Shown here: in pieces, positions 29,688-51,754 of the stretch
How positions within the stretch are numbered: position 1 is the first letter of the stretch
Layout of the letters: the number at the start of each line of letters is the position of its first letter
NCBI GenBank assembly: GCA_963714015.1
Contig: OY970223.1
Location: 512,001-576,000, forward strand
DNA length: 64,000 bases
Direction of reading: 5' to 3'
DNA from: Vulcanimicrobiota bacterium
GTDB taxonomy: Bacteria; Vulcanimicrobiota; Vulcanimicrobiia; Vulcanimicrobiales; Vulcanimicrobiaceae
The notes under the pieces: model-generated
The model's input: only the letters and a program-made list of their open reading frames with translations
Told to the model about the DNA's origin: nothing
Database searches by the model: none
Position numbers and translations under genes: made by a program

Positions 29688-29749
29688 GACTTATCTTTTA
29701 CCCGGCATACGCCAGGCCATGGCAGTACGGGCTCGAAGGCAGCGAGCAC

Positions 29750-30889: not shown

Positions 30890-30890
30890 G

Positions 30891-35694: not shown

Positions 35695-36642
35695 CTAACG
35701 CGACAGAACGCGTTCGCCTGCGCGGGCAAGCGCGTACCCGACCAGCCGGTCGACCAGTGCCCCGTATGAGATTCCGGCCGCTCCGCACGCGTCCGGTATG
35801 AGGCTGGTCGGCGTAAGGCCGGGCAAAGAGTTTATCTCCAGGATATAAGGGCGGCCTTCTTTGCTGACGATGAAATCGCAGCGGGAGTAGTCGCGCAATC
35901 CGACGAGCCGGTGCACGGAAAGCGCCAGCATTTGCACGCGCGCGGCCAAATCAGGATCGATGCGCGCGGGGACGACGTGCGTACTCCCGCCGGCGCCGTA
36001 CTTTGCGTCGTAAGTATAAAATTCGTCTTTGGTCGGAATGACTTCGATGACGGGCAACGCATCCTCACCGAGGATCGCGCAGTGCAGTTCGCGACCGCCG
36101 ACAAACTCCTCCGCAATCACTTCGGTGTACTCTTCGGCCGCTGCCAGCATTGCCTTAGTCCATTGTTCGTGCGTATGCACGATCGTGACGCCGACGCTGC
36201 TGCCTTCGTACCTGGGCTTGATGACGAGCGGCAGATCGAGGGAACCGGGAAGCAGCGGCAGCGTACCCCCGGTGAGATCGAACAGATCCCATGCGGGCGT
36301 CGGCAGCCCTTCGGCCGCGCAGAGTTTCTTGGTGAGGTGTTTGTCCATCGCGATGGCCGACGCTTCTATGCCGCTTCCGGTGTACGGGATGTTCAAATGC
36401 TCGAGAATGCCTTGGATTTGTCCGTTCTCGCCGCCCGGGCCGTGGAGCGCGATAAACGTCACGTCCGGTGCGATCTCGCGAATGGCATCCACGAACCGCA
36501 CGTCGTAGTCGAGCGACTTGGTCTCGTAGCCGAGATCGTTCAGTGCGCGCAGCACGCCCGATCCGCTTTGAATCGAGATCTCGCGTTCGGCGCTGTTGCC
36601 GCCCATCACGACGGCGACGCTGCCCTTCGAAGTTCTAGTCAA
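35695..36642 (-). CDS. ddl: D-alanine--D-alanine ligase
   Basis: VMGGNSAEREIS, ALHGPGGENG, LEINSLPG; TTG start overlapping the murB stop. Confidence 0.96.
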   Translation of the reverse strand: MTRTSKGSVAVVMGGNSAEREISIQSGSGVLRALNDLGYETKSLDYDVRFVDAIREIAPDVTFIALHGPGGENGQIQGILEHLNIPYTGSGIEASAIAMDKHLTKKLCAAEGLPTPAWDLFDLTGGTLPLLPGSLDLPLVIKPRYEGSSVGVTIVHTHEQWTKAMLAAAEEYTEVIAEEFVGGRELHCAILGEDALPVIEVIPTKDEFYTYDAKYGAGGSTHVVPARIDPDLAARVQMLALSVHRLVGLRDYSRCDFIVSKEGRPYILEINSLPGLTPTSLIPDACGAAGISYGALVDRLVGYALARAGERVLSR

Positions 36643-37601
36643 GTGACCGGCTCCGTATCGATGAAGACGCCGACGAGATGCACTTCGAGCTCGAGTTCGA
36701 CGCTGAAGCGCTCCGCCACGGCTCGGCGCACGCGCGCCAGCAGCGCCGCGACGTCGCACGCGCGCGCATTCGCGACGTTGTTGATGAAATTTGCATGCAG
36801 CGGCGAGACTTCCGCGCCACCCTGACGCCACCCCTTAGCGCCGGCCGCTTCGATCAACCGAGCCGCCTTTTCGCCCCGAGGATTCCGAAAACAGGAACCC
36901 GCGTTCGGAAGCGCGATGGGTTGCGTGTTTTTGCGCCGCACGAGCCGGTGCTGCACTTCCTCGCGCACCATTTTGGCTTCGCCGCGTTCGAATTGCAATG
37001 TGACGCGCGTGACCACGGCGTCTCGCGCCAGTGAGGTGTGGCGGTAATAATATTGCACGCTGACCGGATGCGGATCGGCTTTCGCCGGCGATTGCACCCA
37101 TACGTCCATGACGAAATCGCCGATCTCTTTGTCGGTCCCCGCGTTCATACGCAACGAACCGCCGACGCTTCCCGGAATTCCGGCGAGCGAACCGATGCCG
37201 GTAGCGCCGGCACTCGCGGCTTTTGCAGTCAATTGCGCCATATTTGCGGATGCACCGGCGTATACCAGCACTGCGTCTTGCGAAGCGTCGATGCGAATCT
37301 GCGCAAACTCTCCTGCCAGTCGCAAAACCAAACCACGAATTCCGCCATCCCCGACCAGCAAATTGCTTCCGCTGCCCAGGACGAACCACGGGGTCTTGCG
37401 CTTGCAGCAGAACCGCATGATTTGCGCGAGGGCTGCTTCGTTTTGGACTGTCACCAGCGCATCGGCGGGACCGCCGACTCGCCACGACGTGTAGGGCGCC
37501 AGCGGCTCGTCAAAAGCTGCGTTCGCTCCGGCGATGCCCGTCAGGATCTCGCGATCGCCCGAGGAAAGGACGCTCTCGAGCGCTACTGACACGGCGCTCA
37601 T
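36639..37601 (-). CDS. murB: UDP-N-acetylenolpyruvoylglucosamine reductase
   Basis: VGGPAD, GSGSNLL, GIPGSVGG, NAGSCFRNP, HANFI. Confidence 0.96.
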   Translation of the reverse strand: MSAVSVALESVLSSGDREILTGIAGANAAFDEPLAPYTSWRVGGPADALVTVQNEAALAQIMRFCCKRKTPWFVLGSGSNLLVGDGGIRGLVLRLAGEFAQIRIDASQDAVLVYAGASANMAQLTAKAASAGATGIGSLAGIPGSVGGSLRMNAGTDKEIGDFVMDVWVQSPAKADPHPVSVQYYYRHTSLARDAVVTRVTLQFERGEAKMVREEVQHRLVRRKNTQPIALPNAGSCFRNPRGEKAARLIEAAGAKGWRQGGAEVSPLHANFINNVANARACDVAALLARVRRAVAERFSVELELEVHLVGVFIDTEPVT

Positions 37602-38968
37602 GCGCCGGCCGCTTGCGGAATACCGGCCGCGAGCTGTGCGGCGACGTTCGTGATGTTGCCGGCGCCGAGCATCAAGACGAGCGCTCCAGGCGGCGCATCG
37701 CTCGCCAGGATATCGCGCAAATCCTCGACGGCTTTGACGTAATACACCGGTTTGCCGAGAGCCTGGAGGGGCTGGCCGATGTTGCGTTCGCTCACACCTT
37801 GGATGGGCGCTTCGCTGGCCGCGTAGATTGGGGCCAAGTATACTGCGTCGGCGCCTTGCAGCGCTTCGGCGAACTCACGCGCGAGATGGGCAGTTCGAGT
37901 GTACCGATGCGGCTGGAAAGCAACCAATACCGGACCGGAATGGTACAGACGCGCTGCGGCGATCGTTGCTCGAACAGCGGTCGGATGGTGCGCGTAATCG
38001 TCCACGACCGTGAAGCGGCTGCGCTTTGCGAGGATTTCGAAACGGCGGCGCACGCCGCGAAAGTCCTTCAGCGCTTCGGCGATCTTCAGGAACGGTATGC
38101 CCAGTTCGCGCGCCACCGCGATCGCGGCCAGCGCGTTCTGCACGTTGATTTCCCCCGGCACCTGGAGTTTTGCAGTACCCAAGCACACGCCGCCGGAGAC
38201 GACGTCGAAGGACGATCCGAAATCCGCGAAACGGACGTTCACTGCCCGCAGATCCGCTTCGGGGCGAAGTCCGTACGTTTGCGTTCGAGCGCGCCGCGTG
38301 CCTTGCGCGACGGTACGGCTGTGCAGGTTGTCGATGCCGACGATCGCGGCGCCGCCTTCGGGCAGTTTGCTCAAGAACGCGTCGAAGGCCTCGACCAACT
38401 GCGGAAGTTCGGCATCGGATGCCAAGTGATCGTTCTCGATGTTCGTTACGACGGCGATCGCCGGTTCGAGCAGTGCAAACGAGCCGTCGGACTCGTCCGC
38501 TTCCGTCAAAAACCATGGCGCGCTTCCATGGTGCGCATTCGTTCCGGTGAGTGCGTCGATTCCACCAAGGACCAAACTCGCGTCGATCCCGCAGCCGCGT
38601 AAAACCGTAGCGGTCATGGCAGTACTCGTCGTCTTGCCGTGCGTTCCGCAGATCGCGATGCCGCGCAATCCTTCCATGATGCGGCGCAGCATTTCCCCGC
38701 GTCGCACGATCGGCACGTCCCATTCGAGCGCGTGCCGGTATTCGGGATTCTGCGGATCGATTGCCGAACTCACGACGACGGTGCTTGCATTCACGTTGCG
38801 AGCATCGTGACCGATCGTTATCGCCGCACCTTGCTCGCGAAGCGCATCGATCAGCGGCGATTCCGCAACGTCGGAGCCGGTGATTCGCTCGCCGCGCGAG
38901 AGCAAAATCGAAGCGATGGCGCTCATACCGATGCCCCCGACACCGACGAAATGCAGAGAGTTGCTCAC
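37598..38968 (-). CDS. murC: UDP-N-acetylmuramate--L-alanine ligase
   Basis: HFVGVGGIGMS, GTHGKTT, EADESDG, DDYAHHP, FQPHRY. Confidence 0.97.
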   Translation of the reverse strand: MSNSLHFVGVGGIGMSAIASILLSRGERITGSDVAESPLIDALREQGAAITIGHDARNVNASTVVVSSAIDPQNPEYRHALEWDVPIVRRGEMLRRIMEGLRGIAICGTHGKTTSTAMTATVLRGCGIDASLVLGGIDALTGTNAHHGSAPWFLTEADESDGSFALLEPAIAVVTNIENDHLASDAELPQLVEAFDAFLSKLPEGGAAIVGIDNLHSRTVAQGTRRARTQTYGLRPEADLRAVNVRFADFGSSFDVVSGGVCLGTAKLQVPGEINVQNALAAIAVARELGIPFLKIAEALKDFRGVRRRFEILAKRSRFTVVDDYAHHPTAVRATIAAARLYHSGPVLVAFQPHRYTRTAHLAREFAEALQGADAVYLAPIYAASEAPIQGVSERNIGQPLQALGKPVYYVKAVEDLRDILASDAPPGALVLMLGAGNITNVAAQLAAGIPQAAGA

Positions 38969-40080
38969 GCGGCTCTCCTTCGCGCCGCCAGGCCGTCTAT
39001 CCGTGCGACGATCGTCGCAACGGGATCGCCCCCGCCAAGCGAGCGTGCCGCAGCGCGCATTTCGGCAAGCCGCGAGGGCTCCATCGCGTTGCGCAGCGTC
39101 CACCAAAGCGAGTCGGCGTTCAGTTTGGAATCTTCAATGACGATCGCCGCACCGCTCGCCTCGAATACTGCGGCGTTACGCGCCTGATGATCCTCGGAGG
39201 CGAACGGATACGGAATCAGAATGGAAGGCGCTCCCAATGCCGCAAGTTCGCCGATCGTCGACGCACCGGCCCGTGCAACGACCAGCTCCGCTACGGCGTA
39301 CGCATCCGCCATCTCGGTGAGATACGGCACGAGTTTGACGAAATTTCCGCCGAACGTGTCCCGCTCCTCGGCGCGCATGTATTCGTAGTCGCGCTCACCG
39401 GCGACGTGCAGTATCTGCCAATCGTTCGGAAGCGCCCGTCGCGTCACCAGGGCAGCCACGGTTTCATTTATCGAGCGCGCGCCCTGACTTCCACCGATCG
39501 CCAAAATCGTGCGGCGGGACGGATCGAGGCCTAGACGACGCGCCGCTTCGACCCGGTTGTTCGGGCGAAGCAGTGAGGCGCGCACCGGGATCCCGGTATG
39601 CACGAACTTGTGAGCAAGTGCGCCGTCGGGCTGTGCGAACGCGCCCCAAACTTCGTCGACCATCGGCGCCAGGAGGCGATTCGTCAAACCGGGCTGAGCA
39701 TTCGGCTCGAGCAGCGCGAATCGCGCGCGCAGACGCCCGGCGGAACGCAGAACCTTGGCGGCCGCGATGACCGGAAAGCAGACATAGCCCCCGGTGGCGA
39801 TGACGACGTCGGGATCGAAACGCACGAGCGCGCGCATTGCCTGTGCGATTCCGGCAAGATTTGCCCAAGCAGTGCCGATCAGTGCGAGCGAGAGGCGGCG
39901 GCGAAGCGGGCGGCTCGAGATCGTCTCGAGTTCGTAGCCCGCAGAAGGAATGATGCTCGTCTCCAAACGGCCGTTCGTACCGATGAAGCGGATTTGCGCC
40001 CGCGATCGAATCGCGTCGGCAAGCGCGATGGCCGGATAGAGATGGCCGCCCGTGCCTCCCCCGGCAAAGATCACTTTCAT
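38965..40080 (-). CDS. murG: Lipid II GlcNAc transferase
   Basis: GGGTGGHLYP, GGSQGA, RAGAST, DHQARNA. Confidence 0.97.
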   Translation of the reverse strand: MKVIFAGGGTGGHLYPAIALADAIRSRAQIRFIGTNGRLETSIIPSAGYELETISSRPLRRRLSLALIGTAWANLAGIAQAMRALVRFDPDVVIATGGYVCFPVIAAAKVLRSAGRLRARFALLEPNAQPGLTNRLLAPMVDEVWGAFAQPDGALAHKFVHTGIPVRASLLRPNNRVEAARRLGLDPSRRTILAIGGSQGARSINETVAALVTRRALPNDWQILHVAGERDYEYMRAEERDTFGGNFVKLVPYLTEMADAYAVAELVVARAGASTIGELAALGAPSILIPYPFASEDHQARNAAVFEASGAAIVIEDSKLNADSLWWTLRNAMEPSRLAEMRAAARSLGGGDPVATIVARIDGLAARRRAA

Positions 40081-41126
40081 GCCGCTTCGGAATTCCAGAG
40101 CAAGTCCTGTGCGTGCCCGTCGGATCTCGCCACCAGCACGTCGCTTCCCCCGGGCCATAGCGTCATGGTCGTCTCGTACGAAAGGTTGAGCGCCGGCGGC
40201 TCCATGCGTACCCATGCGAACGGCGCTCGTTCGCTCGCGCGCGCGCCAATCTCCCGCACGTCGCGCTCGAGATCGCGCCGCTGCGCAGGAGTGAGGTGCT
40301 CGACCATGACGGTGTGCATGACGATCGTGGTGAAACCGGGCTTTGGAAGCGCGACCTCGGCCATCCATCGGATGCCGTCCGCTCGATCGATGCTGACGGG
40401 ATGCTCGCGCGCTATAGCGATTGCCCGCTCGACGCGGTCGAAGCGATCGCGCTGATCCGGCCATACGAAACTCAAGAGACGCGCAGCGTCCGAAGTTTTG
40501 CGCACGTCGAGCGGATGCACATCGCATCCGCGCCGCTCGACAACCTCGAGCGGCACTTCCAAATACGGAGGGGCGCCTTCGAGTGTCCGGTTGTTCAGCG
40601 TCAAACCGGAGTTTGCGCCGCCCCATGTCCACCCATCGCCGGTATGCCGGTAGCGGTCGAAGTTGAGCACGAGTCCGGCGCTCGAGCCGATTTCGAAGAT
40701 GCGCAGCGGCAGCTGCGTCAAACCGGCCACCCGCAGCACGGCGGCTAAGATCGGCGTCGCGCGCGCGACTTCATTCGTCTGAACGGTCAGCCGCAGTTGC
40801 TCTTCGTACTGCGCGAAGTGATGCTGCAAGTCGTCGGCGGTTGCGCGCCACGCGGCAGCAGGATCGCCGTCTCCGCCTGTGGATGGAAAGTGCGATGCAA
40901 GCGCCGGCGCAAGTTTGAGCAGCGCCCGGTAATGCGCAGCGCCGGCCAGCAGAAGTCCCGGTCTCGTGCGGTGAGCGTGACGGTCCAGCAGCCGGCGAAC
41001 GGCACCGCCCGATTCGTACGACGCTGCGGCATCGCGCAAGAGTGCGCCGTAGAACGGCGAGCCCATTGACGCGCAGGCCGCGGCTTGCAGCCGCAGGCGC
41101 TCCGCGATTCCGCCTTGCGCCTCCAT
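40077..41126 (-). CDS. DUF2332 family protein
   Basis: QAAAC..MGSPFY, VQTNEVAR, EIGSSAGL, LSFVWPDQ, HAQ. Confidence 0.85.
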   Translation of the reverse strand: MEAQGGIAERLRLQAAACASMGSPFYGALLRDAAASYESGGAVRRLLDRHAHRTRPGLLLAGAAHYRALLKLAPALASHFPSTGGDGDPAAAWRATADDLQHHFAQYEEQLRLTVQTNEVARATPILAAVLRVAGLTQLPLRIFEIGSSAGLVLNFDRYRHTGDGWTWGGANSGLTLNNRTLEGAPPYLEVPLEVVERRGCDVHPLDVRKTSDAARLLSFVWPDQRDRFDRVERAIAIAREHPVSIDRADGIRWMAEVALPKPGFTTIVMHTVMVEHLTPAQRRDLERDVREIGARASERAPFAWVRMEPPALNLSYETTMTLWPGGSDVLVARSDGHAQDLLWNSEAA

Positions 41127-41131
41127 TGAAA

Positions 41132-42298
41132 TTACGGATCCAAGTTGACGCGGCGGTGGCGGCCCACGTTCATAACCAGCGCTACGGCGACGAGGCATAC
41201 GATTAGCGAACTGCCGCCGAACGAAATGAACGGCAGCGGAACGCCGGTCACCGGCCAGGACGACGTAACCACGCCGATGTTCACGAATGCTTGAATGACG
41301 ATCATCGCCGTGCAGCCCCCGGCGAGAAAGAACCCGAAGCGATCCGGTGCGCTGATTGCGATGCGAATTGCGCGGTACGCGAATGCGATGAACAGCGCTA
41401 TCACCGCAACGGTGCCAAAAAGCCCGAGTTCCTCGCCGAGCACCGAAAAGATGAAGTCGGTATATTGCTCCGGCAAGTAAAAGAATTTGGCTCGTGACTC
41501 ACCTAGGCCGACGCCGAAGAGTCCGCCGCTGCCCAGCGCAAGCAGCGACTGCACGATATGAAATCCCGTGTTCTGCGCATCTTTCCAAGGATCCAAGAAG
41601 GCGAAGATGCGCGCGCGCTTGTAGGGGCTGGCCAGCACGGCGAAAAGAACCGGCGGCACCGTCGAGAGCGCGATCACGAAGAGATGCTCCAAACGTGCGC
41701 CGGCCGCAAAAAGCATCGCAAACGCCGTGAACACGATGAGGCTGGCGGTGCCCATGTCGGGTTCCAGAAAGATGAGAATGGCGAACGTCAGAACCACTAG
41801 GCAAAGCGGAAATAACCCGCGGCTGAGCGACGTGATGCGATCGCCCCGAATCGAAAGCGCGGCCGAAAGATACAGAACTATTCCAAGCTTGGCAAACTCC
41901 GAGGGCTGAACGGAGATTATCCCTGCTCCTATCCAACGGCGCGCGCCGTTCACTGCCACGCCCACGTGCGGTACCAAAACCGCGGTCAACGCCAGCCCGC
42001 ACGCCAGGATGGCGTAGGGTGCGATCGGCCGGAGCTTGCGGTAGTCGATGCGGTAGGCGAAGAACGCGGCCGCAAGCCCCACCGCGAGATAGACGAGCTG
42101 ACGTTTGACGTAGTAAGCAGTGTCGTGATGATCTGCATAAGCCTGCGCGCTGGAGGCGCTGAATATCATCGCAAGGCCGATCGCGACCAGACATGCCACC
42201 GATCCGAAGAGCACGACGTCCGGCGGCGCTGCGTGATATGAGCGGGGCTTTGAGCCGCTTTGGGACCGGCTTCCTCTGAGCGGCAGCGTGACGCTCAT
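41132..42298 (-). CDS. ftsW: SEDS peptidoglycan polymerase FtsW
   Basis: GARRWI, QPSEFAK, EPDMGT, LPEQYTDFIF, GVPLPFISFGGSS. Confidence 0.96.
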   Translation of the reverse strand: MSVTLPLRGSRSQSGSKPRSYHAAPPDVVLFGSVACLVAIGLAMIFSASSAQAYADHHDTAYYVKRQLVYLAVGLAAAFFAYRIDYRKLRPIAPYAILACGLALTAVLVPHVGVAVNGARRWIGAGIISVQPSEFAKLGIVLYLSAALSIRGDRITSLSRGLFPLCLVVLTFAILIFLEPDMGTASLIVFTAFAMLFAAGARLEHLFVIALSTVPPVLFAVLASPYKRARIFAFLDPWKDAQNTGFHIVQSLLALGSGGLFGVGLGESRAKFFYLPEQYTDFIFSVLGEELGLFGTVAVIALFIAFAYRAIRIAISAPDRFGFFLAGGCTAMIVIQAFVNIGVVTSSWPVTGVPLPFISFGGSSLIVCLVAVALVMNVGRHRRVNLDP

Positions 42299-43689
42299 AG
42301 TTCCGCAGGCTCCGGAAGCTCGTGCACGGCCGCACTAAATTGCCGGCCGCGGTCCTCGGCGGATTCGAACATGTCGAATGATGCGCACGCCGGCGAGAGC
42401 AGCACCATCCACCCCGGCTTTGCAAGCGAGAGCGCTCGGCGCACCGCGTCGGCCATGCTCTCCGCGTGCTCGATCGGCGTGCGGTAAACGTGCGAGGCGA
42501 TATCTTCCGCCGCCTCGCCGATGAGCACTAATGCCTCCACTCGTTCGTCGATGACCCGTCCGAGCTCGGTGAAGTCGGTATTTTTAGACTTGCCGCCGGC
42601 AATCAGCACACAGGGGCGATCGTAAGCGCGCAGTGCCGCGATCGCGGATCCCGGATTCGTCGCTTTTGAGTCGTCGACGAACAGCACCCCGCCGATCTCC
42701 ATGACTGATTGGAGCCGGTGCGCCATTGCGGAGAACGACTTCACGCCTTCGCGCAGCGCATGCGGTTCCACTCCCACGGCCAGCGCCGCAAGCAGTGCCG
42801 CCATAACGTTCTGCACGTTATGGCTTCCGGCCAGCGGAATCTCGCCGGTTCGAACGATCTCGATCGCCCGCGGGTCTCCGCTGAACGGCGTGAAGATCAC
42901 CGAGTCGCCACTCAGGTACATGGCTGCGCGCTCGTGGCGGGCGCCCAGCGTGAACCATAGTTGGCGCGCGTGCATGCGAGGCTCTCCCGAATGCCAGTCG
43001 AGCTGCGCAACGCGCTCGTCGTCGAGGTTGCCGACGAAAAAGTCTTGCTCGCTTTGGTTGGCAAAGATGCGGTATTTCGCTTCGGCATACTCGTCCATCG
43101 AGTAATAGCGGTCCAGGTGATCCGCAGAAATGTTCAGGATGACCGAGACGCGCGGCCGGAACGAGCGGATCGCTTCGAGTTGAAACGAGGAGACCTCGGC
43201 AACGACCCAGTCGCAGGGATGCGCTGCCGGCACTTCGCGTATCAGCGGATTTCCGATGTTCCCGCCGACGTGCACGGATCGCCCCGCCGCTTGCAGCAGA
43301 TGACCGATCAGCGAGGTCGTGGTCGATTTTCCCTTTGTTCCGGTCACTGCGACGATCGGCGCGCTGCAAAGCCGGTACGCCACTTCGATCTCGCTGAAAA
43401 CCGGAACGCCCGCATCCTGTACCGCGCGCACGAGCGCGCCGTTCAGCGGTACGCCCGGTGAAAGCACCGCCACGGTAAATCGGCCCAGCAGTGGAGCAAG
43501 TTCGGCCGGCGCTATGAACCGGGCACCGGTGCTCTCTATTGCCGATATGGCATCGCGCAGCTCCGCGGGCGCTTTCTCGTCTACCGCATACACCGCCGCG
43601 CCGCGGGCCCGCAGCACTTCCGCCGTAGCTTGGCCGCTGCGTCCGATGCCGATGACCAATATCGTGTCGCCGCCGCCGAAATTCTTCAT
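42295..43689 (-). CDS. murD: UDP-MurNAc-L-Ala--D-glutamate ligase
   Basis: GTKGKSTT, EVSSFQL, DDSKATN, LSPACASFD. Confidence 0.97.
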   Translation of the reverse strand: MKNFGGGDTILVIGIGRSGQATAEVLRARGAAVYAVDEKAPAELRDAISAIESTGARFIAPAELAPLLGRFTVAVLSPGVPLNGALVRAVQDAGVPVFSEIEVAYRLCSAPIVAVTGTKGKSTTTSLIGHLLQAAGRSVHVGGNIGNPLIREVPAAHPCDWVVAEVSSFQLEAIRSFRPRVSVILNISADHLDRYYSMDEYAEAKYRIFANQSEQDFFVGNLDDERVAQLDWHSGEPRMHARQLWFTLGARHERAAMYLSGDSVIFTPFSGDPRAIEIVRTGEIPLAGSHNVQNVMAALLAALAVGVEPHALREGVKSFSAMAHRLQSVMEIGGVLFVDDSKATNPGSAIAALRAYDRPCVLIAGGKSKNTDFTELGRVIDERVEALVLIGEAAEDIASHVYRTPIEHAESMADAVRRALSLAKPGWMVLLSPACASFDMFESAEDRGRQFSAAVHELPEPAEL

Positions 43690-44651
43690 ATTGCGATCGC
43701 CATTCCGATGGCGGATAGAACGATCGAAGCGAGCCAAAATCGGCCCGTGACTTTGGTTTCGGGCCAGCCTTCCAACTCGAAATGGTGGTGGAGCGGACTC
43801 ATGCGCAAGATGCGCTTTCCGCCGGTGCGCTTGAAATAAACAACCTGGACGATCACCGAGAGCGCTTCGATGACGAAGACGCCGCCGACTACGATCAGCA
43901 AGAGCATCTCACCGGTGAGTATAGCCAGTGAAGCGAGCAAAGCTCCCAGCGCCAGCGAACCGGTGTCGCCCATGAACATTTTAGCCGGATAGCGATTGTA
44001 GAGCAGCAGGAATGCCGCCGTTGCTCCAATCTCCAGCAGCGCCACTTGCGGCACGGCCGGAACGTAGAACCAGAATCCCAGCGCAGCAAAAACCGCCAGC
44101 GGCGGTATGACGGTGCCGGTGGCAAGTCCATCGAGGCCGTCAGTGAGATTCACGGCGTGAATCGTACCGGTGATCGCCAAGATTCCGAGCAACAGCCAAG
44201 CCCAGTGGGGAACCGCGAGCACGAAACTGCCGGCATGCAGAACGACGTCGCGCGGAAAAGTTCCGTAAGAAGACGAGATTGCGGTCAAAAAAATCACTGC
44301 CACGAGCGCCGTGAGTAAGTATTTGCTGCGCGCGCGCAATCCCCGGTTTTTACCGCGCAAAATTCCCAGTGCGTCGTCGGCCGCGCCGATTGCGGCGCAG
44401 GCAGCGACGAGAAAGAAGATCGTGCCGTCGAACGGTGCGTCGAGCGAGGCGAGCAACACGAAAAGCGGCGTCACGAAACAGAGCCCGCCCATCGTCGGAG
44501 TTCCCGTTTTACGCTGGTGCGTTTGCGGCGCGTCCTCGTAAGCATGTTGGCGCAGCCGGCGCCGCCGCAGCAGGGGCAGCAGAAGCGCGCCCGTCAAGGC
44601 GGCAATTGCGAATCCGGCGGCAACCCAGAGGCCGGCGAGCGTCCAAGTCAC
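43686..44651 (-). CDS. mraY: Phospho-MurNAc-pentapeptide transferase
   Basis: KTGTPTMGG, VNLTDGLDGL, FMGDTGS, PLHHHFE; GTG start. Confidence 0.96.
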   Translation of the reverse strand: MTWTLAGLWVAAGFAIAALTGALLLPLLRRRRLRQHAYEDAPQTHQRKTGTPTMGGLCFVTPLFVLLASLDAPFDGTIFFLVAACAAIGAADDALGILRGKNRGLRARSKYLLTALVAVIFLTAISSSYGTFPRDVVLHAGSFVLAVPHWAWLLLGILAITGTIHAVNLTDGLDGLATGTVIPPLAVFAALGFWFYVPAVPQVALLEIGATAAFLLLYNRYPAKMFMGDTGSLALGALLASLAILTGEMLLLIVVGGVFVIEALSVIVQVVYFKRTGGKRILRMSPLHHHFELEGWPETKVTGRFWLASIVLSAIGMAIAI

Positions 44652-45352
44652 TCCGCGGCCTCTTCGAGCAGCGGATTTAAGCCGGTGCCGCGCCATTTCA
44701 GGACGACAATCGGCGTCTGCTCGTCGCCGTTGCCGTGCGGATTCGAAAGAAGCGCAAGCTCGACGTTACGACGGTTCACCCCCGCGCTGGCGCCCAGAAC
44801 CTTCGCTTTCTCTAAATCATTGGCATCGACGACCGCGCAGCCGATGCCGGTGCGATCCAAGACCGACTGCGCCAAGGCGTCCGGATTCTGCGGCGCAAAA
44901 ACGATCATGCGTTCGAACGGCGGCAGCGTTCCGGTATATCCGTCGATCGCCGCAATCGCCTCGCCCAAAATTTCGTAGAACATTCCTCGCCGCCCCGCGA
45001 ACCGTCCAAGCACTTGCATCAGCGCGGCATAGAGTACTCTGCCGGGGCCGGCCTGATCGATAACGATCTGCAGCGACTCGGGCTGACTCACCGTCGCAAG
45101 CGGGCCCGCACGGCGCGAAAGATAGTAGGCGATGCGCGAAGGACGCACGTATTCTGCGCGAACGGCTTGGCCTTGGGCGATCGCCACCGCCGTTTCGGAA
45201 ATGGCGAGCACGTCGCCGGGGCGCGCGATACCGCTTGCGCTGCGCTCGACGAGCGTAATGAGGTCGTCGCCGGCTTGCACCAGCGGCGTGCGCACCGGAA
45301 TGGCAACCACTCCGCTCGGAAGCTCCGTCCGCGAGATTTGCAGGCGTTTCAT
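44648..45352 (-). CDS. CofE/F420-0:gamma-glutamyl ligase-like protein
   Basis: PVRTPLVQAGDDL, PGDVLAISETAVAIAQG, AIDGYTGTLPP, VVDANDL, NPHGNGDEQTPIV. Confidence 0.78.
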   Translation of the reverse strand: MKRLQISRTELPSGVVAIPVRTPLVQAGDDLITLVERSASGIARPGDVLAISETAVAIAQGQAVRAEYVRPSRIAYYLSRRAGPLATVSQPESLQIVIDQAGPGRVLYAALMQVLGRFAGRRGMFYEILGEAIAAIDGYTGTLPPFERMIVFAPQNPDALAQSVLDRTGIGCAVVDANDLEKAKVLGASAGVNRRNVELALLSNPHGNGDEQTPIVVLKWRGTGLNPLLEEAAE

Positions 45353-46734
45353 GCCGGCTCCGCCGCCCCAGGCACGCGCAAAGCGGCGACGATTTCTTCC
45401 ATCTTATATTTTCGGGAGCCCTTGAACAGGACGGCATCGCGCGGGCCCGTATGCTCGCGCAGCCAGCTCGCGGCTTCCTCGTTCGTCTCGAACCGCACGA
45501 TGCGATCCGCCGGCATCCCGGCGGCGACCGCGCCCGCGGCAATTGACGAGGCGTATTCACCCCCGACGAGGAGTGCGTCTACGCCGACTGCCGCTGCATG
45601 CGCACCCACGCGTTCGTGCAAAGCGGTCGAAAGCGGCCCCAGTTCCGCCATACTTGCGAGCACCGCGATGCGATGCTCGGCCGCTTCGGCAGAAAACGCA
45701 TTCAGCGCGGCGATCATTCCGCTCGCGTTGGCGTTGTACGCGTCGTATATCAAACGCGCTCCGTTTTCACCCGGAACGCTCTCATACCGCCCCGGCGGAA
45801 GCGTAAGGTGCGGAATCGCTTCGATCGCCGTGGATTTCGGCATGTCGAGGGCCAGTGCCGCAGCAACGGCCGCAGCCAAGTTTGCACGATTGTGGGCGCC
45901 GGGCAAGCGGACACGCGTCTCAAACTGCTGTTCGCGCCCCTGCAGTGTAACGATCAACGTCTGTTCGTTCGGGATCCACACGCCCGGACCGCAGGGTTTG
46001 CCGGTACCGAACCAGATCGGCGAGGTTCGCAGCAGCGGGGCGCGCAGCGCCGATTCCGTATCGCCTGCATTCAGCACTGCCTGCGCGCCGTTCGAGAACA
46101 GTCCCCATTTCGTACGCGCAAGGCGCTCGGCGGACCCGAAAATCTCCAGATGCGCCTCGCCGATATTCGTCAGCACGCCTACATGCGGGTGCGCAAGGGA
46201 GACCAGCTCCGCAATCTCGCCTTCGTGCCGCGCGCCCATCTCGATCACGGCTGCAGTATGACGAGATCGCAACTGCAGCAGCAGTTTGCTCACGCCGATC
46301 TCATTGTTTTCGTTCGCCGGCGTCGCCAGTACGCGGTCCTCACCGTAATACGCGATGAGCAGCTGCGCCAAGAGATGCTTGGTCGTGGTTTTGCCGGCGC
46401 TTCCCGTGATGGCGATGACGCGTCCGGCGTACGTGCTGCGCGCATCCGCCGCCAGCTGCATGTACGCGAGCTTTGTGTCGCCGACGATGAGCGCGCATAT
46501 ATCGGGCGGCAACATTGCCGGACCCTCGACGACGAACGCAGCGGCGCCCTTTCTGTGCGCTTCCTCGATGAACGCGTGACCGTCGTAACGCTCGCCTCGA
46601 AGCGCGAGAAACGTATCACCGGGGCAGATCGTCCGCGTGTCGGTAACGATGCGCAGTTCATTTGGAAACGCACCGCCGTTCACCACTTGCGCCGACGTGG
46701 CGGCAGCAGCTCGTTGCAGCGTTAAGCCATTCAC
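45349..46734 (-). CDS. murF: UDP-MurNAc-tripeptide--D-Ala-D-Ala ligase
   Basis: ITGSAGKTTTK, NNEIG, EMGA, DAYNAN, MAELG, KGSR. Confidence 0.96.
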   Translation of the reverse strand: MNGLTLQRAAAATSAQVVNGGAFPNELRIVTDTRTICPGDTFLALRGERYDGHAFIEEAHRKGAAAFVVEGPAMLPPDICALIVGDTKLAYMQLAADARSTYAGRVIAITGSAGKTTTKHLLAQLLIAYYGEDRVLATPANENNEIGVSKLLLQLRSRHTAAVIEMGARHEGEIAELVSLAHPHVGVLTNIGEAHLEIFGSAERLARTKWGLFSNGAQAVLNAGDTESALRAPLLRTSPIWFGTGKPCGPGVWIPNEQTLIVTLQGREQQFETRVRLPGAHNRANLAAAVAAALALDMPKSTAIEAIPHLTLPPGRYESVPGENGARLIYDAYNANASGMIAALNAFSAEAAEHRIAVLASMAELGPLSTALHERVGAHAAAVGVDALLVGGEYASSIAAGAVAAGMPADRIVRFETNEEAASWLREHTGPRDAVLFKGSRKYKMEEIVAALRVPGAAEPA

Positions 46735-48197
46735 AATTTCACCGTTCCGCGGCGCTGCAACGCTCCCCGAACGACTGCGACGTCGTCGAAAGGCAGAACA
46801 TGGGATCCGACGATTTGATAGCGCTCGTGGCCCTTTCCGGCAACCAAAATTGCATCCCCGGGCCTTGCTTCATTCACCGCCAACTCGATGGCGGCGCGGC
46901 GATCCGGTTCGACCGCATGCGGCGCTGTACCGATTGCCGGGAGAATATCGTCGATGATCGCGCCCGGATCTTCGGTGCGCGGATTGTCCGAGGTAACGAT
47001 CGCGAAATCGGCATAGCGCGCGGCCGCGGCTCCCATGAGGGCGCGTTTACCGCGATCGCGATCCCCGCCGCAGCCGAAAACGATGATGATCCGGCCGCGG
47101 GTTACTTCCCTAAGAGAGCGCAGCGCATTTTCAAGCGCGTCCGGCGTGTGTGCATAGTCGATGACGGCATCGACGCCGTCGCCGGGCACGTGCTCCATCC
47201 GTCCGCTGACGCGGGCGAGCGTTTCCAGTCCGGCGGCGGAATCGGCATCACCGATCCCTAGAGCGCGCGCCGACGCAATGGCACAAAGCGCATTGTACAC
47301 GTTGAAACGACCGGGAATGCGCACGCTGAACCGGCGCGCGTCTAAGGTGAACGCGCTTCCGTCGGCGCGCACCTCCAATTCCGAGGGGCGAACATCGGCG
47401 GCATTCTTGACAGCGTACGTCAGAACCGGTTTGCGGCTGCGCAATTCCCGCGACCAGCGATCTCCCAGTTCGTCGTCGACGTTGAAGATCGCATGCGGGG
47501 CTTGCTCGAACAACTGGTGCTTAGCCGCCGCATAGGCTTCGAACGTTTTGTGGAAGTCGAGATGGTCGCGCGTGACGTTCGTAAGCGCGCCGGCGTCGAA
47601 GTGAATGTCGGCGACGCGCTGCAGCGCAAGCGCATGCGAGCTGACCTCCATCGCGACGGCCTTCGCGCCTTGGCGGCGCATTTCCGCGAGCAGCGAATGG
47701 AGCTGCGGCGCAAGCGGCGTGGTGTTCTCCAGCGGCCGCTCGCTGCCGCCGAAGCGCGCGCCGATCGTTCCGATGGTTCCCGCAGGTATTCCGGCAGCAG
47801 TGAAAATAGCGGCGAGCATTTGCGTGGTCGTGGTTTTCCCGTTCGTGCCGGTAATGCCGGCAACGATCAGCGCACGCGAAGGGCTGCCGTAAAACACGTC
47901 GGCGATCTGAGAGACCGCCCGGGCCGAATCCGGAACGACGATCGCCGTTACGCCGGGCGGCACCTCACAATGCTCTTCCATGACGACCGCAACCGCACCG
48001 CGCTCCGCTGCCTGCGCGATGAAGCGGTGACCGTCGGTCTGTTCGCCGCGCAGCGCGACGAATAGCGCTCCCGGCCGGACTTCTCGGGAATCCGATGCTA
48101 GCGCCGTCACCTGTTTTGCGGTTTCGCCGACGACTCGTGTGTTCTGCGCAAGCGTGCGCAGCAGCGTTTCCAGCGCTACGCCTTGCTCCGGCTCCAT
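46731..48197 (-). CDS. murE: UDP-MurNAc-dipeptide--meso-diaminopimelate ligase
   Basis: GTNGKTT, MEVSSH, DHLDFH, DYAHTPD, DNPR (DAP-type), AGKGHE. Confidence 0.97.
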   Translation of the reverse strand: MEPEQGVALETLLRTLAQNTRVVGETAKQVTALASDSREVRPGALFVALRGEQTDGHRFIAQAAERGAVAVVMEEHCEVPPGVTAIVVPDSARAVSQIADVFYGSPSRALIVAGITGTNGKTTTTQMLAAIFTAAGIPAGTIGTIGARFGGSERPLENTTPLAPQLHSLLAEMRRQGAKAVAMEVSSHALALQRVADIHFDAGALTNVTRDHLDFHKTFEAYAAAKHQLFEQAPHAIFNVDDELGDRWSRELRSRKPVLTYAVKNAADVRPSELEVRADGSAFTLDARRFSVRIPGRFNVYNALCAIASARALGIGDADSAAGLETLARVSGRMEHVPGDGVDAVIDYAHTPDALENALRSLREVTRGRIIIVFGCGGDRDRGKRALMGAAAARYADFAIVTSDNPRTEDPGAIIDDILPAIGTAPHAVEPDRRAAIELAVNEARPGDAILVAGKGHERYQIVGSHVLPFDDVAVVRGALQRRGTVKL

Positions 48198-48199
48198 GG

Positions 48200-49966
48200 C
48201 TATCGGCTATTCTCCGCGAGCTTCGGCCGGACCAAGCGCGCCGGCGGATTTATTGCGGGGAGCACGCCCGCATGGAGCATCGCGGCCTTTGCGATTTCGA
48301 CGAAAGCCGGAGCCGCAACCTCGGAGCCGTAGATGGACCCGACCGGCCTTTCCACTTTGACGTAGATAACGTAGCGCGGACGTTGGTAGGGGATCATGCC
48401 GATGAAGGACGCTACGTACGCGCCCGGCTCGTAGATGCCGTTTACGGGAATCTGCGCGGTGCCGGTCTTTCCCGCAGTCGTATATCCGGCGATTTGCGCG
48501 GCGGGATTGCCCGTTCCGCGTACGACGACCGCTCGCAGAAAGGCTCTCAGCCGCGCCGCGGTGCGGGACGAGAAGACGCGGCGTTCGATTTCCGGTGGAT
48601 ATTGATAGATCTGATTGCCTTGCGGGTCGAGAACTGCGCGTAATACGCGCGGACGCATGAGCAGACCGCCGTTGGCAATCGCGCTGTAGAAGCGCGCCAT
48701 GGCGATCGGCGTCACTGAGACGCCTTGTCCGAATGCCATGGTCGCCAGCGAACTCCCGCTCCAGTCAGCCGGCGCCGGCACGATTCCGGGATTTTCTCCG
48801 GAGATGCCAATCTGCGTCGGATCGCCGAATCCCGCGCGGCGCTCCATCGCGTAGAACGTCGAGCCGCCGATCTTCATCGCCACTTGGGCCGCGCCGATGT
48901 TCAGCGAATCGGCAATGATCGTCTCGAGCGTATCGCCGCCGGGGCTTGGCGCCAGTCCGTCGACGGCGTTATAGATTTGACGCCCTCCGACGACAAGGGG
49001 GCCGGTCGAGAGAAATTTCTCGCCCAGCGAAACCTTGCCGCTTTCGATTGCGGCCGCGGCCGTTACGAGTTTGAAGGTCGAACCGGGTTCGTACGCGTCT
49101 TGAACGGCCCGGTCGCGCAAATCGCCGGCGGAGAACTTCCAATACTGATTCGGATCGAAGTGCGGCAGATTCGCCAGCGCGAGCACTTCGCCGGTGTTCG
49201 GATCCATTACGATTGCGGTGCCGCTTTCCGCGTGATATTCCTTGACCTGCTTGGCAAGCGACGATTCTGCGACGAATTGCAGATACGGATCGATCGTCAG
49301 TTCGAGTGAGAGGCCGGGTTTTGCGGGTTTGATCACGCGCTCGCGCCCGAAGGGAATCGGACGGCCGAATTCGTCGGTTTCCATCGTAACGCGGCCGGAC
49401 GTGCCTTTGAGCAGATCGTCGTACGTGTATTCCAGGCCGTCCAGCCCATTCTCGTCGATCCCGACAAAGCCCAGGAGCGTCGACGCACTTTTGCCGGCCA
49501 AATCGACTCGCCGTCCCGTGTCCTCTTCAATCAGCGAAATGCCGGGCAGATCCAGACTTTGCACTTTGACTGCGAGGTCGTGCGGAATCTTTCGCGCAAT
49601 CCAAACAAACTGCAGCGCCCGATCGTGCAGCAACTCGATCGTCGCTTTGTCGAGTTTGCCGACCAGCGGCTCGAGCTCGCGCACGGCGGCGTCGGGATCC
49701 GCCAGATCGTGCGGCACGCCGTACACACTTTCGGACGGAAGGGATTGCACCAGCACGTTACCGTCGCGATCGAGGATGCTCCCGCGGCGGGCAAAGACTT
49801 CGACCGTATCGCTGCGCTGTTCCAAAGCCTCTTTGGCGTAAAGCGGGCCTTTGAGCATCTGCACGTCGACCAGGCGCCACGACAAGTAGATGCCTACGGC
49901 CATCAGCACGTAAAAGAGCGTTTTCGCGCGCCGGGGTGCGACGCGCGAAAAGGTCCGCTTATGCAT
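48200..49966 (-). CDS. ftsI: Class B penicillin-binding protein (FtsI/SpoVD-like)
   Basis: RRGSILDRDG, EPGSTFK, SLN, KTGT. Confidence 0.9.
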   Translation of the reverse strand: MHKRTFSRVAPRRAKTLFYVLMAVGIYLSWRLVDVQMLKGPLYAKEALEQRSDTVEVFARRGSILDRDGNVLVQSLPSESVYGVPHDLADPDAAVRELEPLVGKLDKATIELLHDRALQFVWIARKIPHDLAVKVQSLDLPGISLIEEDTGRRVDLAGKSASTLLGFVGIDENGLDGLEYTYDDLLKGTSGRVTMETDEFGRPIPFGRERVIKPAKPGLSLELTIDPYLQFVAESSLAKQVKEYHAESGTAIVMDPNTGEVLALANLPHFDPNQYWKFSAGDLRDRAVQDAYEPGSTFKLVTAAAAIESGKVSLGEKFLSTGPLVVGGRQIYNAVDGLAPSPGGDTLETIIADSLNIGAAQVAMKIGGSTFYAMERRAGFGDPTQIGISGENPGIVPAPADWSGSSLATMAFGQGVSVTPIAMARFYSAIANGGLLMRPRVLRAVLDPQGNQIYQYPPEIERRVFSSRTAARLRAFLRAVVVRGTGNPAAQIAGYTTAGKTGTAQIPVNGIYEPGAYVASFIGMIPYQRPRYVIYVKVERPVGSIYGSEVAAPAFVEIAKAAMLHAGVLPAINPPARLVRPKLAENSR

Positions 49967-49972
49967 GGCGGA

Positions 49973-50413
49973 CTATTTCGCGCGCAGCAGGCTGGTCAAA
50001 CTGGAGAGGAAGGCCAAGTGCGATCCGTCTTCGCGTTTGACGCGCGCCGGAAGTGTGACGACGGCGAATTGCTGCGGATCGCTCATATGCAGCGACGAGG
50101 CCAGACGGGCGAGCCGATCGTCGGATTCGAGTTGGGCAAGCCGATCGTCCAAACGCGCGGCTTCGGCCTGTAAATCCGCTCGCTGACGTTCGGCGCGCGC
50201 CATGGCGTAATTGAGACTGGTAAGATGCGCGGTGAGCATGACGTATAGCATCGCGCAAGCAAGCCCGGCGAACAGCATTGCGCAAAACGAGCGCAGCGCC
50301 GAATAGCGGGCAAGGGCTTTGCGCCGCACTCGACGCTGGGTGGCCTGTTTGGCGGTGCGAACGTTGGAGATGCGCGGTTTGGGCTGAAGCGTTTGTGCAA
50401 GTTGTGCCGGCAT
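49973..50413 (-). CDS. FtsL-like cell division protein
   Basis: Basic N-terminus, one TM segment, coiled coil; lies between rsmH and the PBP gene. Confidence 0.7.
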   Translation of the reverse strand: MPAQLAQTLQPKPRISNVRTAKQATQRRVRRKALARYSALRSFCAMLFAGLACAMLYVMLTAHLTSLNYAMARAERQRADLQAEAARLDDRLAQLESDDRLARLASSLHMSDPQQFAVVTLPARVKREDGSHLAFLSSLTSLLRAK

Positions 50414-50416
50414 CGA

Positions 50417-51292
50417 TCAGCTTGCCTTCCGTTTGGCGGCGCGCAGCTTGGCGCTGCGTGCGCGGGGATTTTGCTGGAGTTCGTCCTGGCCCGGAACGAC
50501 GGGCTTACGCGTGAGCACTTCAAGCCGTTCATCCTCACGGAAAGCGTGCTTGACGATCCGGTCTTCCAGTGAATGAAAGCTGATGGCGACAACGCGGCCC
50601 GCGTCACGCAGCCGATCGACTGCGGCGTCGAGGCCTTCACGCAGGACATCGAGCTCGTCGTTCACCGCAATGCGCAGCGCTTGGAATACTCGGGTTGCGG
50701 GATGGATCCGTTCGCGCCGCCCCGGCCGGTAGAGCAGTCCGCTGATCATCTGTCCGAACTCCACGGTCGTGTCGGGCAGCGTTCCGGTTTTGCGGCGCTG
50801 CACGATAACGCGCGCGATGCGCCGGGCCGCGCGTTCCTGTCCATAGTTAAAGAAGATGTCCGCCAGCTCGGATTCGCTGGCCGTCATGAGAATGTCGAAT
50901 GCGCTCCGGCCGACACGTGAATCCATCCGCATGTCGAGCGGCGCCGATTCTCGAAACGAGAATCCGCGAGAGCCCTCATCAAACTGCATTGACGAAATCC
51001 CAAGGTCGAAGAGGATGCCGTCGACCCGCTCGATTCCGAGCCGATCCAAGGCTGAGGAAATGTGGCGGAAGTTCGATTGCGCGAAGGTGAAATGCCGGTC
51101 GGCGATCTGCGCGGCGCGACCCGCTGCCGACGGATCTGCATCGAGCGCAATGAGCCGGCCGCTCGTCAAGCGCGCCAGGATGCCCCGGCTGTGTCCGCCC
51201 GCGCCGAACGTCGCATCGACATAGATCCCATCCGGGCGGATCGCCAAATACTCCAGCGAGGCCTCGAACAGGACCGGAACGTGTTGATCCAT
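50417..51292 (-). CDS. rsmH: 16S rRNA m4C1402 methyltransferase
   Basis: HVPVL, DATFGAGGHS, DLGISSMQ, ISFHSLEDRIVK, NPRARSAKLR. Confidence 0.97.
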   Translation of the reverse strand: MDQHVPVLFEASLEYLAIRPDGIYVDATFGAGGHSRGILARLTSGRLIALDADPSAAGRAAQIADRHFTFAQSNFRHISSALDRLGIERVDGILFDLGISSMQFDEGSRGFSFRESAPLDMRMDSRVGRSAFDILMTASESELADIFFNYGQERAARRIARVIVQRRKTGTLPDTTVEFGQMISGLLYRPGRRERIHPATRVFQALRIAVNDELDVLREGLDAAVDRLRDAGRVVAISFHSLEDRIVKHAFREDERLEVLTRKPVVPGQDELQQNPRARSAKLRAAKRKAS

Positions 51293-51310
51293 CCGTCCAC
51301 CACTCCGGCA

Positions 51311-51754
51311 TCAGTACAATCCCAGCTCCGCCATGATGTCGGACACGTCGTCAGCAGGCTTGGCATACTCGGCCACGCGCTCGCGAGCCCAAACTTCCAC
51401 CCGCGTTAGTGAACCTATCGAAGTCACATCCCGCTCGATGGCCGCGAACGTCCGCAGCGACCCGGGAATCAGCAGGCGGCCTTGCGCGTCGCACGCGACC
51501 TCTTCGGTATGCGCGAACACGTGGCGAACGAAGCGCCGAAACCGGTCGTCCTTCGTTGCTGCAGTCTCCAATCGCGTGCAGATCTGCTCCCAAGCCGACT
51601 CGGGATAGAGCAGCAGACACGGGTCGGACGAGGAAATAGTTAAGATGAAGCCTGTGCCTAGCCGCTCCCGGAACCGCGCAGGCACGATGAGACGCCCCTT
51701 CTCGTCCAGGGCGTGCTCGACCGAGCCGGTGAAGCGCGGCAAGTCCGCGTGCAA
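51311..51754 (-). CDS. mraZ: Division/cell wall cluster repressor MraZ
   Basis: LDEKGRLIVPARFR, DAQGRLLIP, RVEVW. Confidence 0.95.
   Translation of the reverse strand: MHADLPRFTGSVEHALDEKGRLIVPARFRERLGTGFILTISSSDPCLLLYPESAWEQICTRLETAATKDDRFRRFVRHVFAHTEEVACDAQGRLLIPGSLRTFAAIERDVTSIGSLTRVEVWARERVAEYAKPADDVSDIMAELGLY

Follow-up and report, generated by a model that had tools for sequence, protein, structure and literature searches.

In a 64,000-nucleotide stretch of a Vulcanimicrobiota genome (contig OY970223.1, positions 512,001 to 576,000; hereafter the window), we found that a gene for a 234-amino-acid (aa) protein (P0001), located between murF and mraY, belongs to a CofE-like family that almost certainly does not serve in the tailoring of coenzyme F420. 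The function of this gene is very probably related to the cell wall, and we consider the chances about even that its product is an amide ligase dependent on nucleoside triphosphate (NTP) that modifies a carboxylate of the peptidoglycan stem peptide at the MurF-to-MraY step, with catalysis, nucleotide, carboxylate and nucleophile all proposed by analogy. The list of cytoplasmic reactions in peptidoglycan synthesis is, to our knowledge, considered complete. Judging from the sequences, the novelty here appears to be a family of putative CofE-fold ligases whose pathway context, partners, and presumed substrate are new. The gene and the 2 neighbours that it overlaps are the following:

44648..45352, minus strand: gene for the 234-aa protein, predicted CofE-fold and ligase-like, almost certainly non-F420; ATG start, PF01996
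45349..46734, minus strand: murF, 461 aa; Pfam Mur_ligase, Mur_ligase_M, and Mur_ligase_C; murF position after murE
43686..44696, minus strand: mraY, given as the longest open reading frame (ORF) from the ATG at 44696; Glycos_transf_4 and MraY_sig1

The original prediction stated that the 234-aa gene overlaps both of these neighbours, and this was borne out by the ORFs and by the letters of the sequence. On the plus strand, positions 45349-45352 read TCAT, which is ATGA in the coding direction, so that the ATG of the CofE-like gene overlaps the TGA of murF. Positions 44648-44651 read TCAC, which is GTGA in the coding direction, and here the stop codon of the CofE-like gene overlaps a possible GTG start of mraY at 44651. 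The start of mraY is ambiguous because this GTG and the ATG at 44696 are both possible; the longest ORF, which begins at the ATG, overlaps the CofE-like gene by 49 nucleotides (nt), and an overlap exists whichever start is taken. The division and cell wall (dcw) cluster around the gene is complete and lies entirely on the minus strand, in the order mraZ, rsmH, a 146-aa ORF, ftsI, murE, murF, the CofE-like gene, mraY, murD, ftsW, a DUF2332 gene, murG, murC, murB, and ddl.

This gene order is conserved in the host's class. We scanned related loci using one genome per species, which yielded at least 591 relatives, and analyzed the best 80 (54–80% identity), all of Eremiobacterota/Vulcanimicrobiota type by record title, a few of these titles looking mis-binned. 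The murF gene was directly upstream in 78 of these loci and mraY directly downstream in 77, the other 2 and 3 loci, respectively, being cut by contig ends; both neighbours were present in 75, and no other order occurred among these best 80 of at least 591. An intact CofE-like ORF of 214–261 aa was also found in 75 of the 80 loci, and the 5 non-intact loci comprised 2 contig-end cuts, 2 assemblies with frameshifts in many genes, and 1 read-through into MraY. Because of these intact ORFs and of the 1767 database relatives that the protein has at E ≤ 0.001, it is not a chance ORF. By hand count, the stop codon of the CofE-like gene lay in an (A/G/T)TGA context in 61 of the 80 loci, and most of the starts preceded an A, so that TGA can serve as the murF stop. 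The link to MurF is also covalent in some genomes: 2 genomes of another family of the same class encode fusions of 742 and 744 aa in which 3 Mur ligase domains are followed by PF01996, and a 736-aa database representative has the same MurF-PF01996 build. At one locus (L019:7001-8668), the CofE-like frame reads through into MraY to give a 555-aa ORF, and in 4 database proteins (P0252, P0186, P0234, and P0237) part of the CofE-like domain is joined to MraY, which may be either a real fusion or an artefact of assembly or gene calling.

We then placed the 234-aa protein among known families. It matched PF01996 with an E-value of 2.8e-13 and 50.3 bits against a Pfam cut-off of 25, so the CofE-type motifs noted earlier in this protein are real. 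PF01996 was its sole Pfam domain; Mur_ligase_M and Mur_ligase_C were absent from it, which rules out membership of the Mur ligase family (MurC-F, Mpl, and MurT). The CofE equivalog model TIGR01916 gave 34.0 bits against a curated cut-off of 180.65, NF009809 gave 33.6 bits against a cut-off of 274, and TIGR04132 ("putative folate metabolism gamma-glutamate ligase") matched weakly (E 0.04). A sequence search of the PDB matched Af-CofE over residues 18-90 only (E of about 4e-4). An AlphaFold2 model built from a 27-sequence alignment had a mean predicted local distance difference test score of 93, and a Foldseek search of the PDB with this model returned Af-CofE as the only match (E 1.6e-9, TM 0.61). 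In VIA-align, residues 13-231 of the model were superposed on residues 1-226 of the 249 of the Af-CofE chain, with a Z of 15.2 and a root-mean-square deviation of 3.2 Å over 186 residues at 26% identity, whereas the next best PDB chains had a Z below 3. This modelled structure assigns the protein to the PF01996 superfamily and indicates that it would have the CofE fold over its whole length, resembling the N-terminal domain of CofE/FbiB (PF01996, TIGR01916; PDB 2PHN, 2G9I, and 7ULD) over about 186 residues.

An ordinary CofE that glutamylates F420-0 is what the public annotation suggests, since the protein passes the PF01996 threshold and the NCBI names of its close relatives are coenzyme F420-0:L-glutamate ligase. 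We regard this explanation as extremely improbable in view of the low TIGR01916 score and of the contents of the genome. The host genome is a single contig of 3.56 Mb that is 89.6% complete by markers, and the CofE-like gene is its only PF01996 gene. No match to cofD was found in this whole genome, and the only matches to cofC were weak and nucleotidyltransferase-like (at most 29 bits against a cut-off of 105). Two adjacent CofH-like ORFs proved to be the menaquinone genes MqnC (471 bits, cut-off 428) and MqnE-like (403 bits, its best match). The absence of F420 genes, which the original prediction had reported for the window, thus holds for the genome. Among 401 genomes sampled from the phylum, 331 of them in the host's class, canonical CofE above the cut-off was found in 39, all in other classes, and in none of the 331. 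A weak CofE-like match, taken as a proxy for the CofE-like gene, occurred in the absence of canonical CofE in 305 of the 331. This class-level count rests partly on 14 genomes of the tally that are flagged as unpublished (G128, G232, G178, G230, G212, G344, G391, G237, G275, G245, G328, G247, G263, and G370). Moreover, some genomes with canonical CofE, such as G090 and G080, carry a CofE-like gene as a second, separate copy.

Structure and phylogeny point the same way. Af-CofE grips the F420 ring via the stretch G153-C155 after its D-T-N motif, F92, and Arg234 of the partner chain, beneath a domain-swapped hairpin (PMC10861534). The 234-aa protein ends 3 residues past the position aligned to Af-CofE residue 226, and therefore has no counterpart of the tail bearing the F420-stacking Arg234. 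In a FastTree phylogeny of 140 domain sequences and 3 canonical CofE proteins, the CofE-like family was separated from canonical CofE with a local support of 100; among the groupings of this tree, which was made by a fast method and carries local supports, this split is the only one to be leaned on. The name coenzyme F420-0:L-glutamate ligase is also given to CofE-like members in, for example, Megasphaera, Veillonella, and Sporomusa, where it looks wrong, as does the name "ribosomal protein S28E/S33" under which several JGI entries of Eremiobacterial members appear.

To compare active sites, we aligned the CofE-like family with 6 canonical CofE sequences of the same phylum using hhalign (probability 97.8%, E 1.3e-12, 145 columns). 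The motifs common to both were GDD, PGD followed by a beta-strand, (Q/E)GR, P...A, P..PD, and (I/V)VD.N, so that the N-terminal GDD...PGD...GR block and the VD.N motif are shared with CofE/FbiB; HMMER aligned the last motif with IITDTN of Af-CofE. Among 76 Eremiobacterial sequences of 54–100% identity, 52 of the 234 positions were invariant, and many of these were polar, among them D47, E53, E67, R70, D137, D176, N178, D179, N204, N208, D210, and R221. In 27 diverse members, T22, A75, G123, F125, P154, N204, P205, and P214 were invariant, and D47, Q60, D137, D176, N178, G207, and T213 nearly so. The kept residues include the Asp of the PGD, (I/V)D, and VD.N motifs (D47, D137, and D176, respectively). 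Compared with the 6 canonical CofE sequences, the 234-aa protein has about 26 fewer residues separating the D.N motif from the C-terminal G(K/N).D..P motif. This conservation pattern is that of a putative enzyme with a changed substrate, which may bind a nucleotide, and amide-ligase chemistry can reasonably be inferred, by analogy, from the fold and the conserved Asp-containing motifs.

The wider family was explored by a full search of 1.84 billion representatives, which returned 715 relatives at E ≤ 0.001, of which 88 reached E ≤ 1e-30; many of the relatives were longer proteins. Labels of the ESM Atlas assigned relatives to the phyla Bacillota, Actinomycetota, Vulcanimicrobiota, and Chloroflexota, and members were also seen in Thermanaeromonas, Peptococcaceae, and Limnochordales; the family occurs in monoderm Bacillota and in Actinomycetota too. 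A Pfam scan of 32 family proteins for second domains found the CofE-like domain together with MurF (1 of 32), with MraY (4, the CofE-like domain being partial and the proteins possibly read-through gene calls), with Amidase_3 (6, from a Bacillota metagenome-assembled genome, MAG), with TPR (3, from Actinomycetota MAGs), with GATase and Asn_synthase in one chain (3), with Polysacc_deac_1 after an intervening hydrophobic segment (1), and with an M20 peptidase (1). The remaining proteins had no second Pfam domain, and many of these measured about 400 aa, having a hydrophobic helix at the N-terminus plus some 150 additional residues; one cluster of them is named Candidatus Xenobia. In the tree, the window protein grouped with the other Eremiobacterial sequences and the MurF fusion (local support 92), the Amidase_3 fusions with stand-alone proteins of Clostridia and Limnochordales (95), and the Negativicutes sequences with one another (96), the Negativicutes clade being sister to the clade of membrane-domain fusions (98).

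A profile of the non-Eremiobacterial members detected stand-alone proteins of 210-225 aa in many Negativicutes, namely in Sporomusa, Thermosinus, Methylomusa, Lucifera, Megasphaera, Anaeroglobus, Colibacter, Schwartzia, Anaerovibrio, Anaerosinus, Selenomonas, Veillonella, and Dialister, and the family was present in every Negativicutes genus that surfaced. We examined 80 metagenome loci of this type, 72 of which had sufficient flank to look for an upstream neighbour. In 71 of these 72, an unannotated gene for a protein of about 180 aa ended at most 150 nt upstream on the same strand. Of 59 loci, 44 had a glutamate racemase-like gene no more than 1.5 kb upstream, with 3 of 3 tested scoring above the TIGR00067 cut-off, and rph and rdgB-type genes lay downstream. 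BLASTP showed that the 180-aa partner and the N-terminal part of the 400-aa fusions are homologous (E 4e-8 over 147 residues), and a hidden Markov model of an 11-sequence alignment found the partner domain fused to the CofE-like domain in 32 of 168 sequences. That alignment displays the motifs G(D), N.G.Q, R.D.Y(F/W)E, and R, and the protein has no match in Pfam, NCBIfam, or the PDB sequences. It has a single hydrophobic segment at its extreme N-terminus, preceded by hardly any Lys or Arg and followed by 1-4 of them, so that by the positive-inside rule the rest of the partner, and the CofE-like domain in the fusions, would be cytoplasmic. Examples of this partner are the following:

L096:7429-7980, L100:7415-7990, and L154:7423-7965: genes for the partner protein of about 180 aa
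P0133, P0137, and P0140: partner domain at the N-terminus of the protein

On these grounds, we propose that cell-wall synthesis may have taken over a soluble cytoplasmic CofE-fold enzyme from cofactor tailoring. If it works like CofE, the enzyme would bind a nucleotide triphosphate and a divalent metal and would phosphorylate a free carboxylate of the stem peptide; attack of an amine or amino acid on the acyl-phosphate would then produce the amide. The most likely target would be the alpha-carboxyl of D-iso-Glu, with the free carboxyl of meso-diaminopimelate (meso-DAP) as the alternative. The D-Glu alpha-carboxyl is our first guess because of the glutamate racemase neighbourhood, the likeness to the substrate of CofE (itself a glutamyl residue that has a single free carboxylate), and the modification of this group known from Negativicutes. 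In the host, the substrate may be UDP-MurNAc-pentapeptide, the product of MurF, or the reaction may occur at the hand-over to MraY, which forms lipid I. In other lineages, the partner domain would hold the catalytic domain at the inner face of the membrane, and such anchoring suggests lipid-linked precursors as substrates there.

Several observations weigh against a stem-peptide ligase of this kind. Residues that are invariant in the 6 canonical CofE sequences are changed here (K43 to I58, E45 to Q60, and H38 to E53), the canonical HGxVCANAG block is replaced in the family by GxFY...G, and the canonical FGRxWR after the Asp is replaced by N-D-L, the motif being D-A-N-D-L in the 234-aa protein versus D-(S/T)-(F/N)-G-R in canonical CofE. 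No dcw gene was found within 8 kb of the CofE-like gene in any of the 80 Negativicutes-type loci, so that the linkage is confined to one class. A homologue of the membrane partner was not found in the host genome at E ≤ 1, in a profile search run without a positive control. Finally, enzymes of the Amidase_3 type mostly work outside the cytoplasm, so that they would be odd partners for an NTP-dependent cytoplasmic ligase unless these ones are cytoplasmic; by eye, no N-terminal hydrophobic segment was seen in P0131 or P0136.

The replaced residues and motifs could be explained if the protein were a non-catalytic CofE-fold adaptor or regulator of the cell wall that, for example, docks MurF to MraY at the membrane or senses a nucleotide or precursor pool. 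The MurF fusions and the read-through into MraY would fit such a tether as well, and membrane anchors and TPR repeats like those of some relatives are typical of scaffolds. An adaptor is nevertheless unlikely: Asp, Glu, Asn, Arg, and Thr abound among the 52 invariant positions, the family-wide conservation of D47, D137, D176, and N178 looks like an active site rather than a surface patch, and the CofE core is kept over the 186 aligned residues. The limits of the dcw linkage bear on a different explanation, in which an active CofE-type ligase acts on a non-murein substrate (for instance a lipid carrier, a secondary wall polymer, or some other cofactor that bears a carboxylate) and is merely co-expressed within the cluster. 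PF01996 does contain other non-F420 subfamilies, as the weak TIGR04132 match recalls, and the unrelated DUF2332 gene inserted in the same cluster illustrates that insertions need not be functional. However, only 13 of the 80 class loci have DUF2332 between ftsW and murG, whereas the CofE-like gene holds the same position in all 80. Its product is, moreover, covalently joined to MurF in some genomes and, in relatives, to four other kinds of murein enzymes, and in Negativicutes its neighbour is glutamate racemase. We therefore judge a non-murein substrate improbable. The conserved dcw linkage that the original prediction set as a test was accordingly found inside the host's class and was missing outside it, and the proposed link to peptidoglycan precursor synthesis is well supported by the conserved position, the MurF fusions, and the fusions to other cell-wall enzymes.

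The occurrence of the family in Negativicutes raises the question of polyamines. Kamio's group is said to have described a membrane-bound "lipid intermediate:diamine transferase" that acts on the lipid intermediate. The CofE-like family is present in genera with polyamine-bearing peptidoglycan, which holds for the family and not for the clade of the window. In Negativicutes, cadaverine or putrescine is carried on the alpha-carboxyl of the stem D-Glu and is bound by the SLH domain of OmpM (PMC10628300, PMC5020339), this polyamine modification of murein being what the OmpM outer-membrane tether recognises (PMC10628300). The words "ligase" and "transferase" do not occur in PMC10628300, and a literature search, which did not cover supplements or non-open journals, found no paper that names a polyamine-attaching gene or ties a CofE-like protein to peptidoglycan. 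It is tempting to speculate, as a possible though doubtful extension of the stem-peptide ligase, that the CofE-like subfamily and its single-pass membrane partner are the missing enzyme that adds diamines (cadaverine or putrescine) or other amines to the D-Glu alpha-carboxyl of lipid-linked precursors in Negativicutes and other Terrabacteria, and that the Eremiobacterial gene is a soluble, MurF-coupled version of the same reaction.

Polyamine-based tethering through OmpM, which the original prediction had considered, fared differently in the 2 groups. The host genome contains no SLH domain, in a search whose controls matched in 4 of 14 genomes. There is therefore no OmpM, outer-membrane tethering through OmpM cannot be the role of the gene in the host, and we rejected it there. 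For Negativicutes the idea stays alive, the family being present in Selenomonas and Veillonella beside a glutamate racemase. MurT/GatD was likewise rejected for the host genome: MurT_C was not found in it, and the host thus has no known D-Glu-amidating system. A cultured member of the phylum has a Gram-negative envelope with thin peptidoglycan; its description gives no wall chemistry and does not contain the term "F420" (PMC9758169). The sole match to an AR-fold Orn/DAP/Arg decarboxylase in the host genome, which is lysA-like, lies outside the window (G000:C1:13319-14030; L180 and L181) and is split over 2 adjacent frames, pointing to a frameshift or an error in the sequencing.

We compared the proposed enzyme with known systems. 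It would share with CofE/FbiB an acyl-phosphate amide-ligase chemistry, and differs from them in scoring below the equivalog cut-off, in the absence of an F420 pathway and of a stacking-Arg tail, in its shorter segment ahead of the C-terminal motif, and in its genomic partners. The mechanism of CofE has itself been likened to those of MurD and FPGS (PMC8498797, PMC10861534). The Mur ligases MurC-MurF and Mpl are neighbours in the same pathway, and MurF is fused to a CofE-like domain in some genomes, but their fold is unrelated to that of the 234-aa protein. In Gram-positives, MurT/GatD amidates the D-iso-glutamate of lipid II. The 234-aa protein and its relatives are possibly alike in action, as they would activate a stem carboxylate in the cytoplasm in a nucleotide-dependent manner after completion of the pentapeptide, sometimes in association with the membrane; MurT, in contrast, has a Mur-ligase fold and a glutaminase partner, and the 234-aa protein has no Mur ligase domain. 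AsnB1 and LtsA are AsnB-type amidotransferases that amidate meso-DAP. They too activate a carboxylate on the stem peptide, and the GATase, Asn_synthase, and CofE-like chains described above combine both types, but AsnB-type enzymes have another fold and another chemistry (adenylation and glutamine-derived ammonia). The diamine-adding activity of Negativicutes is matched by the presence of the CofE-like family, with membrane partner and glutamate racemase, in Selenomonas, Anaerovibrio, Veillonella, Megasphaera, Dialister, and Sporomusa; it is unlike the case of the host, which has neither SLH/OmpM nor a detected membrane partner, and the family also extends to monoderms.

If the stem-peptide ligase is correct, it would add to the Mur pathway a new accessory step, kept across the whole Eremiobacteria class, and would be a new use of the CofE fold. 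Given the relatives found in Negativicutes, Clostridia, Actinomycetota, and Chloroflexota, a CofE-fold Mur step would extend across several phyla. It would also correct the widespread mis-annotation as coenzyme F420-0:L-glutamate ligase in organisms that make no F420, and would supply a candidate for a question open since the 1980s, namely the identity of the gene product that attaches polyamines to murein in Selenomonas and Veillonella.

The other features of the cluster in the window are the following:

50417..51754, minus strand: mraZ and rsmH, the head of the dcw cluster; MraZ and Methyltransf_5
48200..49966, minus strand: ftsI-type class B penicillin-binding protein; Transpeptidase and PBP_dimer
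46731..48197, minus strand: murE, in the same operon as murF; Mur ligase domains
42295..43737, minus strand: murD; MurD-like_N and Mur ligase domains
41132..42298, minus strand: ftsW; FTSW_RODA_SPOVE
40077..41198, minus strand: DUF2332 gene, 373 aa, between ftsW and murG; PF10094, E 1.7e-83
35695..40080, minus strand: murG, murC, murB, and ddl, the tail of the dcw cluster, assigned by Pfam; murG start approximate

The DUF2332 protein matched no NCBIfam model. Two ORFs of 146 aa (49973..50413, minus strand) and 318 aa (34688..35644, minus strand), neither of which had a Pfam match at E ≤ 0.001, occupy the usual places of ftsL and ftsQ in the dcw cluster. A few kb past the end of the cluster, two genes lie in succession on the plus strand (29513..32087). 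The first encodes an alanine racemase that is extended at its N-terminus by about 85 residues, and the second a protein that contains a copper amine oxidase N-terminal domain.

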